This document shows, piece by piece, positions 7,151-12,670 of a stretch of DNA of 64,000 nt. This DNA is from Heptranchias perlo (lineage: Eukaryota): the NCBI RefSeq assembly GCF_035084215.1, contig NC_090370.1, positions 21,266,001 to 21,330,000 on the forward strand. Reading direction: 5' to 3'. The position numbers and the translations under genes are program-made. Below the pieces are notes generated by a model. That model saw only the letters and a program-made list of their open reading frames with translations. It ran no database searches and was not told the DNA's origin. Position 1 is the first letter of the stretch. Each line of letters opens with the position of its first letter.

Positions 7151-8054
7151 AGTATCCCACCTTCATGTCCAGCACTTGAGAGAGACACACACTTTCAGTC
7201 TTACGCTTCCGATCAGTGTGTTCATATCACCCTCAATAACTGTATCCAACCTTCAAATACAGCACCAGAGAGTGAGAGAGAAAGGGAGACAGATACGGTG
7301 AGAGAGCGAGCGGAGAGGCACAGTGCCACAGTATCAGTTCCAGACCGACCTGTAAAGTTGCGTTTTATCCAGAAAATCCCGTTGGAGAGACAGAAGATGC
7401 ATTCTTATCTCTCATGGATATACCAGAGACGGACACACTGTTAATCCCACACTCAAGGACAGTACAGAGAGTGACAAAAACAATGTGGGCCGAATTTAAC
7501 CCTCTCTTGCCTGTTGTACTATATTCGGTTTTGCAGATCAGGTCCGTTCGTTATTAATCTCAGTGGCCGAGAGTTTCACTCTGATTATATTAATCTGGGA
7601 CTGTTGCTGTCTGATATTAAGCCTACACAGTCCCAGCAAATACACCGACTCCCGCTTTCCTCCCATGTTCCTCCAGGATTGGTTTGAGAAATCCTCCCTC
7701 CAGTTTCGGGTTCACGCGTTACTTTATCAGTAAAGGGACCAAGAATAAACAGATCCCATTGGCTCATTTCACAGCCGTCCACGTTATCTCTGATTGCCCC
7801 TTTACCATAAAAAGATACCGAGAGAAACAGCAGGGATGGAAACATCCAGTTGAATAGTGAGAGATTGTAAAGTCAGTCTGGATTCCAGCGATCGGCACTG
7901 GTGGAATCCCATCTGTTTCCCATTCTGGTGCCTGTTCCTGCACTGCCTGTGGACCCCATTCCCTCTGACCTTTCCCCCACTTCCTTTGCTCAGACTCTGA
8001 AAAATTCCAACTGGGGAAAGTTTCCATCGATTTTGGTATTGCGAATTAAACCAG

Positions 8055-8400
8055 ATATCTGCGCATGCGCGATTCAGCCCCGCCCCCAGCGCTGCTTACT
8101 GGTGAGCAGAAGAGCGCATGCGCGCTCCCCTCCCCCCGCTCGGCCTGTGGGCGCCATTCCCTCAGTGAGCGGAAGAAGATGGTTAAAAACAGCCGGGAAT
8201 GGAGAGATCACGGCCCCCGGGGGAAGGGAGCAAAGAGCAGCCTCGTTACAGCAGCTCATCGCTTCGGGACCGTGTCCGCAGATGGGCTCAGAGATCGGCA
8301 TTGAGTCCGGGGGCTGTTTGCAAGAGGCGGAGTGGATCAGGAACTGGTCCCGGAACATGGAGTGAGCGGGGGAAGGAAGAGGTCATTCTCGGGCTGTGTG
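8055..8400 (+). promoter_or_regulatory. CpG-rich promoter-like element, copy 1
   Basis: GCGCATGCGC (NRF1-type) at 8061 and 8114, GC box CCCCGCCCC, CGGAAG (ETS) at 8170 followed by AAGATGG; high CpG density. Confidence 0.6.
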
Positions 8401-8965
8401 TGTCCAGGGTGTGTCCAGGGTGAGGGAGACAGAATGGGAAGAGCAGGTTGTTTGAAATCATTGCTGCTTTCTCTCCCCAAACCAGTGGTGAAATGTTCCT
8501 GGTTTAGTTCCAGTCTCACCCTGTTTATTGTTATTGGACAGTGAACAGTGGAAACAGAGCCGGACAGTAAGGATATGGGGAGTGATACAAAGAGCATCTA
8601 TTGCAGGCACCAGGTGACAAGTGTGAACACGTTTTAAACAGCGGCTGTTGTGTTTCGGTTGAACGGTTAGTTCCATGGTGGAGGGTATTAGAAACCTGAC
8701 CTGTACAAAGGTCCCCGCCCCATCGGGTAGTGCCATTCATGGATCAGTGCAGGGGTTGTGTTGTGTCTGGATGTCACCAAATTGTTGTCAAACAGCCCAA
8801 CACACCTGGTGTGCAGAAGCTGAGAGCTGCAGTACTGCAGTGGAGTCAGACACTGACACTGTTTGTATGTTTGTATCGCTGGTTTTCATTTGTGGTTATT
8901 ACAATGATTATTAATTGTAAACAATTTTACAACACCAAGTTATAGTCCAACAAATTTATTTTAAA

Positions 8966-9005
8966 TTCCACAAGCTTTCGGAGGCTTCCTCCTTCGTCAG
9001 GTGAA
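8966..9005 (-). ncRNA. Minimal type I hammerhead ribozyme (left pLTR)
   Basis: Exact reverse complement of the motif at 9889-9928. Confidence 0.7.
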
Positions 9006-9888
9006 CGGTGTGGAAATGAAATTTTCGAATCCTTCGCATTTTAAAATCACAGAACAATGCCTGGTGATTACTGCCTGTTGCCAAGGCAATCACAGTGAGC
9101 AGACAGAAAGGTGTCACCTAAAAAGGCCACCGACTATACAAACCCCCCAAAAAAAAGAGAGAGAGAGAGAAGGAACACAGTCAATGACCCGTTATATTAA
9201 AAACAGATAACATTTGTTCGCTGGTCGGGTTACGTGTAGTGTGACATGAACCCAAGACCCCGGTTGAGGCCGTCCTCATGGGTGCGGAACTTGGCTATCA
9301 ATTTCTGCTCAACGATTTTGCATTGTCGTGTGTCTCGAAGGCCGCCTCGGCCAACGTTGTCTACCTCATACGTTGCAGGAAAGGATGCCCCAGAGCATGG
9401 TACATTGGCGAGACCATGCAGACACTGCGACAACGGATGAACGGACACCGCGCAACAATCGCCAAACAGGAGGGTTCTCTCCCTGTCGGGGAACACTTCA
9501 GCAGTCATGGACATTCAGCCACCGACCTTCGGGTAAACATACTCCAAGGTGGCCTTCGAGACACACGACAACGCAAAATCGTTGAGCAGAAATTGACAGC
9601 CAAGTTCCGCACCCATGAGGACGGCCTCAACCGGGGTCTTGGGTTCATGTCACACTACACGTAACCCCACCAGCGAACAAATGTTATCTGTTTTTAATTT
9701 CACGGGTCATTGACTGTGTTCCTTCTCTCTCTCTCTCTTTTTTTGGGGGGGTTTGTATATTCGGTGGCCTTTTTAGGTGACACCTTTCTGTCTGCTCACT
9801 GTGATTGCCTTGGCAACGGGCAGTAATCACCAGGCATTGTTCTGTGATTTTAAAATGCGAAGGTTTCGAAAATTTCATTTCCACACCG

Positions 9889-9928
9889 TTCACCTGACGA
9901 AGGAGGAAGCCTCCGAAAGCTTGTGGAA
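9889..9928 (+). ncRNA. Minimal type I hammerhead ribozyme (right pLTR)
   Basis: TTCAC-CTGACGA-A-GGAGG AAG CCTCC-GAAA-GCTT-GTGGAA: CUGANGA and GAAA cores, 5-bp stem II, palindromic AAGCTT, AATAAA just downstream. Confidence 0.72.
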
Positions 9929-10679
9929 TTTAAAATAAATTTGTTGGACTATAACTTGGTGTTGTAAAATTGTTTACAATTGTCAACCCCAGTCCATCAC
10001 CGGCATCTCCACATAATGATTATTAACGGAGAGATTCAATTGATCACTTTTGTATTTTCCACTTCACCTGTTCTTGAGTTACAAGAGATACTTTTTCTTC
10101 CTACAGTCAAATCCTTGAAGGACCCAGAATCAGTGTGATGTTTACTCAACCCGAGGCACAAGGAGCAGTCAGTGCAGCCAGCTCCTTCTCACACACAGTA
10201 AGTACATTATCACTCACAGAGCTCAGAGACACAGACAGGTCATCAGTCCCACAATCTCAGACAGCAGAAATAGTCAGTCGCACACTGACCCCAATCCAAC
10301 ACTCAAACAGAGCAGGAGAGACAGACGTAATTTCCATTTCACAACGACTCAGTCCTGCTGACCGGGAGATAAATAATTCCCAGTCCAAAATCACACCCAG
10401 TATCAGATTGAAAGGCACTGTGTCAATCTCACATTAGTTCAGCCTTAGCTACAAATTAAACACCAGATAGAACTGACACATGGTACTGATTGATAGGTAC
10501 AGAATGAATCAGAATAGTGTGCTCCAAGATTCAAATTAAATACCAGCCCACAACTCTCACACATTATGAGTTTAAAGATGCAGTCTTCATGCCACTATTG
10601 TGCACTGAGATACAAATGAGATACCAGTTCAGATGTTACCCATTTTTGACTCACATATATGTCCAAAAACTTCAGAGTG

Positions 10680-11890
10680 TCAGAATGAAATGTACAGTTT
10701 CAATTCATTCACTGCAGACTGAGGTACACATTAGATACCAGTCCAAAATTCTCATACAGTGTAAGACTGAAAGAGAGAGTATCAACCCCATTATTGCAGA
10801 CTGAGCAACACATCACATACCAGTCCAAAAATCTCAGTGTCAGGTTGAAATATACAGTATCAATTCCAGAAGTGCAGATTGAGTTCCACATTATATACCA
10901 GTCCAAAATTCGCATAAAGTATCGTACTGGAAGATACAGTATCAATCCCATTAGTGCAGACTGAGGTACACATCAGTTACCTGTCCAAAAATCACATTGT
11001 GTCAAATGAAAGGCACAGTGTCAATTCCTTTATTGCAGACAGAGGTTCATAATAGATAACTGTCCAAAAATCTGGTACAGTATTATAGTGAAAGATATAG
11101 TGTCGATGTGATTAGTACAGAATGACCTACACGTTACATACCAGTATAAAAATCTCACACAGTATTAGACTGGAAGATACAGTATCAATCCCATTAGTGC
11201 GGACTGAGGTACACATTAGATACCAGTCCAAAAGCCACATTCAGTGTCAAATTGAAAGATACAGTATCAATTCCATTAGTGTAGACTAAACTACACCTTA
11301 CAAACCAGTCTAAATATATTACACAGTAAGAGACTGAAAGGTACAGTATGAATTCCATTAGTGCAGACTGAGCTACACATTATATATCATCCAAAAAACT
11401 CATACATTATCATACTGAAACATACAGTATGAATCCTTTTAGTGTAGACTAAGCTAAACATAACAAAGCAGTCCAAAAATCCCTCGCTGTGTCTGACTGA
11501 AAGTTCGAGTGTCAATTCCATTGGTACAGACAGAACCACACATCACATATCAGTCCAAAAATCACATACAGTATCAGACTGAAACATACAGTATCAATTC
11601 CATTAGTACAGACTGAGCGACACTGAACACACCAATCCAAAAATCTCATTCAGTGTCAGACTGAAATGTACAGTATCAATTCCATTAGTACAGACTGAGC
11701 GACACCGAACACACCAATCAAAAAATCTCATACAGTGTCAGACTGAAATGTACAGTATCAATTCCATTCGTACAGACTGAGCGACACCGAACACACCAAT
11801 CAAAAAATCTCATTCAGTGTCAGACTGAAAGATACAATATCAATTCCATTAGCCCAGACTGAGCGACACAATAAATACCAGTCCAATAAT
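10680..11890. repeat. ~82-bp satellite array
   Basis: Unit GACTGAAAGATACAGTATCAATTCCATTAGTGCAGACTGAGCTACACATT...CCAGTCCAAAAATCTCATACAGTATCA; starts at 11577, 11659, 11741. Confidence 0.88.
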
Positions 11891-12084
11891 TTCACAGTAA
11901 AAGGTTGAAGTGAACATTATCTTCACAGAGATTAAGATACAATCATGCAACAAAACTCACACATGTTGTTTGATTAAAACATAATCCAAAAGCGTATCCA
12001 TATTTACACATTAATGCCGGACAAAAGATTTGCATACATTAGTGAATTAAAGACACAGTTTCAAGCACCATACTGCAACCTGAA

Positions 12085-12670
12085 ATAAGAATACAGAACG
12101 AATCCAGACTTGCACTTTGCCCAGAGACTGAGTTACAGAATGAATCCCACACTGAGATAGAATACCAGAGATTGACAGATACCGAATGAATCCCACACTC
12201 ACACACATTCCCAGAGATTGACAGAAACAGAATGAATCCCACACTCACAGATAGCACCAGAGATTGACAGATACAGAATGAATCCCACACTCACACACAT
12301 TCCCTGAGATTGACAGATACAGAATGAATCCCACACTCACACACATTCCCTGAGATTGACAGTTACAGAATGAATCCCACACTCACACACATTCCCTGAG
12401 ATTGACAGATACAGAATGAATCCCACACTCACAGATAGCACCAGAGATTGACAGAAACAGAATGAATCCCACACTCAAAGATAGCACCAGAGATTGACAG
12501 ATACACAATGAATCCCACACTCACACACAGTATCAGAGACTGACAGATACAGAATGAATCCCACACTCACAGACTGTACTGGAGACTGACTGATACAGAA
12601 TTAATATCACACTCACATACAGTATCAGAGACTGACAGACAGAGAATTAATCTCACACTCTCATACAATC
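12085..12670. repeat. 46-bp satellite array
   Basis: Tandem ACAGATACAGAATGAATCCCACACTCACACAC...GAGATTG units. Confidence 0.92.

Follow-up and report, generated by a model that had tools for sequence, protein, structure and literature searches.

Several histone arrays are known to contain sequences other than histone genes, as far as the accessible portions of the sources describe them. Ribosomal RNA (rRNA) genes are intermingled with the histone repeat in some organisms, 5S in Artemia and Mytilus and the rRNA cistron in the boll weevil (PMC13525598). In the newt Notophthalmus, histone units alternate with satellite tracts that are transcribed by read-through from histone promoters (PMC11602149; PMC5615363; PMC2114352), and in elasmobranchs histone and transfer RNA (tRNA) genes share one cluster (10.1101/2025.06.08.657570). 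Chicken LL2R is a single 160-kb array with a retrotransposon promoter and an excess of donor sites (10.64898/2026.03.19.712899). Here we describe a CpG-rich element with spliced exons that recurs in the histone arrays of the shark Heptranchias perlo. The stretch analysed (the window; all positions given are window positions) is the 64,000 nucleotides of NC_090370.1:21266001-21330000 (contig C49) in a 3.25-Gb genome. The element is real, conserved and spliced. With moderate confidence we read it as a many-copy gene of the histone repeat, having a CpG-rich promoter, three short spliced exons and a likely non-coding RNA product, with the satellite that follows it probably intronic. The likely task of its promoter and first exon is to hold the array in an open, unmethylated state. 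This reading draws on copy number, confinement, exon joints, CpG retention, a uniform exon 1 and the lack of a coding signature.

The locus resembles the rRNA-interspersed arrays in that a non-histone RNA gene appears fixed in the histone repeat and co-amplified with it, but in this case the gene is spliced, has a CpG-island promoter and matches no Rfam family. The accessible text of the paper on those arrays (PMC13525598) does not contain the words 'shark', 'satellite' or 'cartilaginous', and two of its supplements do not contain 'shark' or 'satellite'. With the newt loci it shares the alternation of histone units with satellite tracts, which may be transcribed. There, however, transcripts start at histone promoters; here the satellite comes after spliced exons with a promoter of their own, and transcription is predicted on one strand. 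Like LL2R, it has a single promoter, a spliced 5′ part and a tandem repeat presented on one strand, whereas LL2R is one 160-kb array and here there are hundreds of arrays of 1-5 kb with few sense-strand donors. The CpG-rich, CpG-retaining start is that of a vertebrate CpG-island housekeeping promoter as far as the available part of the source describes these (10.64898/2026.05.04.722487), except that it exists in ~600 near-identical copies and drives no known coding gene. Two tRNA genes in the window recall the elasmobranch tRNA-histone cluster, for which the accessible part of the source names no spliced non-coding gene (10.1101/2025.06.08.657570). A literature search, with subscription journals and bioRxiv supplements outside its scope, found no description of the unit, which is apparently new to the literature as searched. 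The passengers of histone repeats known so far are rRNA genes, and the satellite transcription known at histone loci is read-through; a spliced polymerase II gene maintained in hundreds of copies, whose exon 1 matches H3 coding sequence in uniformity and persists next to dead histone genes, suggests that vertebrate histone arrays harbour a cis element or RNA not described before. A single targetable promoter sequence lets one ask if local non-histone transcription helps a histone cluster to stay open or builds its nuclear body.

The window contains four copies of the element and one promoter-less stub:

8061-8182 (+): copy 1, promoter core, with two GCGCATGCGC sites, a GC box and CGGAAG-AAGATGG (motif search, CpG decay)
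8140-8361 (+): exon 1 of copy 1, with an estimated start and with donors after 8164 and 8361 (GT..AG joints at the copy 4 equivalents, low divergence)
8542-8613 (+): copy 1, exon 2 (copy 4 joint 59501>59623, loose ends between exons 2 and 3)
8914-10011 (no strand assigned): 1.1-kb insertion in intron 2 of copy 1, with inverted arms of 438 bp and a weak match to GIY-YIG
10107-10197 (+): copy 1, exon 3, ending ACA/GTAAGT (copy 4 joints, conserved acceptor and donor)
23516-24546 (+): copy 2, with promoter, exon 1 (to 23831), exon 2 (24012-24083) and exon 3 (24460-24546)
35763-36467 (-): stub, with part of exon 2 and exon 3, promoter-less, downstream of copy 3 on the same strand
42713-43699 (-): copy 3, with promoter, exon 1 (to 43399), exon 2 (43231-43175) and exon 3 (ending at 42713)
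59123-60156 (+): copy 4, with promoter, exon 1 (donors after 59225, 59377 and 59444), exon 2 (59624-59695) and exon 3 (60071-60156)

A preliminary description, made from the letters of the window, had placed the element at four positions and a stub without promoter at ~35750-36458 (-); all five are found there, on the strands claimed. Pairs of GCGCATGCG lie at 8061/8114 (+), 23516/23562 (+), 43699/43646 (-) and 59123/59176 (+), with a GC box between the members of each pair (8085, 23540, 43674 and 59147) and CGGAAGAAGATGG at 8170, 23618, 43590 (-) and 59231. A first-order model expects 0.06 and 0.002 such matches per 64 kb; the four sets are not independent events, because they are copies of one duplicated unit. 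We take the motifs to be NRF1, Sp, ETS/GABP and YY1 sites, types presumably shared with housekeeping promoters. The promoters have a CpG observed/expected ratio of 0.73-0.89. Copy 2 is placed behind intact H3, H4 and H1 genes.

Exact matches in the genome number 597 for a 20-mer of exon 1, 719 for a 20-mer at the exon-3 donor and 284 for an H4 20-mer, all three being lower bounds, so that exon-1 copies are about twice as many as H4 genes by this measure. On C49, among the matches listed, there are at least 83 exon-1 sites and at least 22 H4 sites. A 15-mer of exon 1 has 619 genome matches. Contigs C1-C48 account for eight of them: C2 has four, C23 two, and C3 and C34 one each. C2, C3 and C23 bear histone clusters; the C34 match has no further similarity and is unrelated to the element. 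A further 519 of the 619 matches are on later contigs, and placement rests on the matches listed, among which the element is confined to histone clusters, a point that genome-wide matching had been proposed to test. On C284 the regular unit H2B-H2A-H3-H4-H1-element-satellite recurs every ~16.5 kb, and some copies (C360 and C1562) have no full histone gene in the 10-20 kb examined. A dispersed transposable element, named beforehand as an outcome that would overturn the proposal, is rejected, with seven of the eight C1-C48 matches on three cluster-bearing contigs (among the matches listed).

Splicing was followed in contigs from the public runs X1, X5, X6 and X7 (four of the nine listed), which were placed on copy 4 up to the edge of the satellite. 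The RNA status of the runs is a guess, DNA may be in them and contig depth is a poor measure of expression; the exon joints are firmer evidence than depth. GT..AG joints are present at 59225>60071 and 59444>60071 (X1) and at 59501>59623 (X7), and loose ends join exon 2 to exon 3 in X1, X6 and X7. The joints come from two studies, whose runs bear two organism labels. At 59203 and 59296 X1 matches the genome sequence and X6 and X7 depart from it. In a second organism, too, these exons are joined. X1 also contains backward joints, from exon 3 to exon 2 or exon 3, which may be circles or splicing into downstream stubs. With the RNA label of the runs a guess, the element is likely transcribed and spliced.

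Cover climbs at the element's own promoter. Upstream, summed depth is 0-69 (X1), 0-247 (X6) and 0-388 (X7), with near-zero bins at 58185-58378; it reaches 25,529, 1,811 and 34,348 in exon 1 (59252-59348) and 16,127, 1,585 and 12,662 in exon 3 (60125-60221) in the same order of runs. The next bin is down to 1,154, 549 and 1,080, so that past the exon-3 donor cover has fallen by a factor of more than ten in X1 and X7 and of about three in X6; just before the satellite the depth is 63, 126 and 164. The exon-3 acceptor AG is kept in 71 of 71 copies and the donor GT in 63 of 71, a set that includes eight loci chosen for lacking GT; genome-wide the donor count is 719 GT vs 8 non-G, with G followed by a base other than T left out of the count. 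The exon-1 donor is kept in 65 of 67 copies, and the exon-2 donor in 75 copies is GT in 68 and GC in four. The drop in cover together with the conservation of the exon-3 donor indicates that the satellite is probably intronic, removed by splicing after exon 3. Of the non-coding transcription unit proposed earlier, the CpG-island promoter with non-coding spliced exons and retained CpGs stands; satellite RNA as its product is unproven and is probably not the mature RNA, the fall in cover at the conserved donor pointing instead to an intron.

The satellite tracts of the window are as follows:

10676-11894 (+): 82-bp satellite after copy 1, 15 units (tandem-repeat search)
12134-12667 (+): 46-bp satellite, 11.6 units, related to the 82-bp unit
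24720-27183 (+): satellite after copy 2
33971-35491 (-): satellite after the stub
37217-41145 (-): satellite after copy 3
60622-64000 (+): satellite after copy 4, running off the window

All five elements (four copies and the stub) are followed by 82/46-bp satellite on the same strand, and base composition bears out the claim that each presents the same A/C-rich strand (sense strand A 38-41%, C 22-27%, G 15-17%). The 46-bp and 82-bp units align with a score of 73, against a shuffled maximum of 58. Among 60 exon-3 copies, the 53 with at least 1.5 kb of flank were used to count polarity: a same-strand satellite lies within 2 kb of exon 3 in 51, at a median distance of 434 bp (44 of 46 if the seven copies sampled by way of the satellite are set aside). 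The two that lack it are a copy on C23 and a fragment in inverted orientation. The preliminary description had the promoter always aimed into the satellite, which fits 51 of the 53 copies and not the other two, and this is a single inherited arrangement rather than repeated aiming. The shared junction, the related 46/82-bp units and, upstream of the promoter, decayed 46-bp units with matching polarity (z 5.8) place the module within an old satellite tract. Constant polarity is inherited from one ancestral junction and was rejected as a sign of selection. The C23 copy (L036-L037, C23:14.55 Mb) has the complete promoter and its three exons but lacks satellite over the next 9 kb, a natural control for the contribution of the satellite.

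A doubtful though possible alternative is that the unit makes a satellite-containing RNA that stays at the locus and there organises heterochromatin or the histone locus body, or else is processed into small RNAs. The satellite follows exon 3 in 51 of 53 copies, a 24-mer of the 46-bp unit has 15,520 genome matches of which the first 100 listed are all on element-bearing contigs (C2, C3, C23 and C49), and contigs reach the last bin before the satellite (depth 63-164). The element was present in five of six regions examined around sites of this 24-mer. Precedent exists in LL2R, whose nascent repeat RNA nucleates a condensate according to the available part of the report (10.64898/2026.03.19.712899). 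Against such an RNA, cover falls at the conserved exon-3 donor, the arrays range from 0.1 to 5 kb and are missing from one C23 copy, similarity between units is only 68-87%, folding gives no signal on the 46-bp sense strand (z 0.03), no Rfam family matches, and there is no donor excess of the LL2R type. Fold signal is likewise absent for exon 1, exon 3 and intron 2; the 82-bp unit has folding z of -2.7 and -2.2 on its two strands, which we do not take as function. Splice-like sites in five arrays, scored with rough matrices, amount to 4 donors and 9 acceptors on the sense strand vs 27 and 27 on the antisense strand. Base composition accounts for this scarcity, which would suit an intronic satellite. 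Exon 3 as an exonised satellite unit was considered and rejected (z 1.8, not significant). The first bases past the copy 1 satellite, 12681-12760, resemble by eye a stretch upstream of the H2B CCAAT boxes at 14770-14860, which suggests a possible old duplication of H2B upstream DNA.

Exon 1 and the promoter stand out among the copies. CpG decay, counted over 62-74 copies (33 for the stretch after the satellite), is 1.1% in the promoter (62 copies) and 1.2% in exon 1; upstream it is 9.5%, intron 2 has 14.7% and the stretch after the satellite 31.7%. The first 143 bases of exon 1 (67 copies) diverge from the majority by 1.1% on average, the promoter by 4.2%, exons 2 and 3 and the introns by 4.9-6.4% and the upstream flank by 8.1%; the coding controls give 1.5% for H3 (7 copies) and 2.7% for H2B (18 copies). 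As the copies are related, these figures are descriptions and not independent tests. Judged from CpG retention, the promoter would be unmethylated in the germ line. Exon 1 is ~7 times more uniform than flanks 600 bp away, non-CpG sites included. Beside dead H2A genes (88-91% identical to the intact one) exon 1 is 98.6-99.3% identical to that of copy 2, and the upstream flank of the same copies has only 83-84% identity.

These data bear on whether the unit is a neutral passenger: an old promoter that landed in spacer satellite, was amplified with the array, fires through its intact motifs and is kept uniform by conversion. The single shared junction, with a median of 434 bp from exon 3 to the satellite, the decayed same-polarity 46-bp units upstream of the promoter and the many copies that have insertions or no promoter are what such a history would leave. 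We nevertheless regard it as rather unlikely, since exon 1 exceeds its flanks ~7-fold in uniformity at non-CpG sites too, outnumbers H4 and belongs to a set of exons that is joined in a second organism.

The claim that no open reading frame is conserved across the copies proved too strong in its literal form: a reading frame starting at the second ATG stays open for ~38 codons in each of the four window copies, as it does in 43 of the 46 copies examined. No coding signature accompanies it. The synonymous share in this frame is 9 of 26 distinct alleles (0.35 vs 0.27 expected, p 0.22), the H2B control giving 0.58 vs 0.31 expected, and exons 2 and 3 give p of at least 0.18 in all frames. A micropeptide of ~40-80 residues starting MERSRPPGEG is accordingly very unlikely. 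In its favour are the open frame, the good context of its ATG and the survival, in principle, of peptide-length frames through splicing; yet there is no synonymous excess in the open frame or in exons 2 and 3, the frames diverge past codon 38 through a 22-nt indel, and searches for protein relatives with two exon-1 frames and of Pfam returned nothing (a third exon-1 frame of 41 codons, with a stop at codon 3 in 28 of 46 copies, was outside the protein searches). The element thus appears free of protein-coding constraint, with low power on exon 1. Rfam gave no family at gathering score, only two weak unrelated matches (E 1.5 and 3.4). Two further candidates were rejected: an rRNA passenger (5S or rDNA), which has no Rfam match, and a host gene for small nucleolar RNAs or microRNAs, the introns containing no known small-RNA family (Rfam only).

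Exons 1-3 sum to ~300-380 nt, and the conserved donor of exon 3 with the drop in cover beyond it suggests that most RNA leaves this exon by splicing. The loose end behind exon 3 is mixed (agreement 0.54); it has only chance 11-bp matches in the loci examined and no genome match at 3 mismatches. Processed copies, sought through exon-3 ends without a following G, gave eight matches genome-wide, all of genomic type. A last exon can be predicted 150-180 bp beyond the satellite, and an intact H2B gene lies further on:

12817-12875 (+): candidate last exon, predicted only, with AG at 12817-18, AATAAA at 12843 and a T-rich tail
15072-15446 (+): intact H2B downstream of copy 1 (sequence comparison)

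In the regular unit H2B and H2A are downstream on the same strand, which favours one further alternative, that the element supplies a coding gene with a second 5′ leader by splicing into H2B/H2A. Another form of this alternative makes the element a 5′ end orphaned from a zinc-finger gene family. Splicing into H2B was rejected, a pyrimidine-CAG acceptor preceding the H2B start in 1 of 22 copies. The zinc-finger origin, which the preliminary description had listed beside a dispersed transposable element as what would overturn its proposal, was not borne out either: in the copies examined no zinc-finger exon follows on the same strand under this promoter, in the two zinc-finger genes compared the 5′ regions score 37-38 against the element, close to shuffled maxima of 31-36, and both zinc-finger arrays have CpG-rich starts of their own. 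We judge a leader function of either kind very unlikely. C2H2 zinc-finger genes (14 and 8 fingers) do adjoin copies of the element (L022:7150-10000 with L031, and L078), one of them back to back with it.

Under the many-copy gene reading, housekeeping factors would bind the promoter and give constant transcription, polymerase II would pass through the satellite to a poly(A) site just past it, and splicing would remove the satellite, which would mainly exist as nascent RNA. The selected part would be the promoter and the first 140 bases, not the satellite, and the role would be in cis, that of an always-active island amid dead genes, transposons and repeats that keeps the array open. A bolder version, which we offer tentatively and hold to be improbable as a whole, makes the element a dedicated sixth gene of shark histone arrays. 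It would be a non-coding gene of polymerase II with more copies than H4 and constraint equal to that of H3, and its nascent transcript, bearing the satellite, would mark each repeat unit and either scaffold the histone locus body or license the array all through the cell cycle.

Several points weigh against the favoured reading. The chromatin role in cis, although likely in our view, remains a proposal. Gene conversion and the low mutation rate of unmethylated DNA could make exon 1 uniform without function, and conservation of the donors of exons 1 and 2 does not exceed that of the dinucleotides around them. None of the runs is recorded as RNA from this organism; X5, the only one labelled RNA-Seq (a small fish metagenome run), is flat at 0-24 with no exon peak. 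At the far end, the candidate AATAAA occurs in 23 of the 33 copies, which is no better than 35% of the 6-mers around it and not above background, and the acceptor AG of the candidate last exon in ~13 of 33. The coding test comprises 26 alleles, and one of twelve frames reached p 0.04, a frame that stops at codon 3 in 28 of 46 copies.

The copies differ in structure. The 1.1-kb insertion at 8914-10011 lies inside the interval (7850-12670) of the preliminary description, which did not mention it. Its inverted arms are 97% identical, a short duplication AATGATTATTAA is present at both ends, and the GIY-YIG match (E 4e-4) is under the curated cut-off; we take it to be Penelope-like. It is common to other C49 copies (e.g. 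L029). Modules of exon 2, exon 3 and satellite that lack the promoter lie downstream of full copies and on the strand of those copies, as the window stub and in L022, L027, L030, L051 and L053; they could take splicing from the upstream full copy. On C360 a subfamily (L045, L046, L047 and L050) lacks the first GCGCATGCG site and the GC box, and has short satellites and no full histone gene within the 10 kb examined.

Intact H2B genes begin at 15072 and 31536 and an intact H2A at 29955, and intact H3, H4 and H1 are also in the window, together with broken H2A and H2B copies, nine histone stem-loops and the two tRNA genes, which adjoin H2A remnants. The element had been said to persist in cassettes that lost all functional histone genes. 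Broken H2A genes do lie upstream of copies 1, 3 and 4, but intact H2B genes follow copy 1 and copy 3 with the stub, and those cassettes therefore retain some histone genes. At 5039-6125, 45022-47156 and 54057-57184 a tRNA gene or remnant and a dead H2A that retains its stem-loop precede the element, with H3, H4 and H1 missing. The H2A at 16335-16720 (+) has a frameshift near codon 20, the rest of its H2B-H2A-H3-H4-H1 set being intact. Two copies of a decayed element, presumably transposase-like, are at 1-3627 and 49886-51750, one split by a long interspersed nuclear element; two fragments of it have no Pfam match. The tandem repeat at 48166-49143 is a separate one, with a 52-bp unit that has no relation to the 46/82-bp family.

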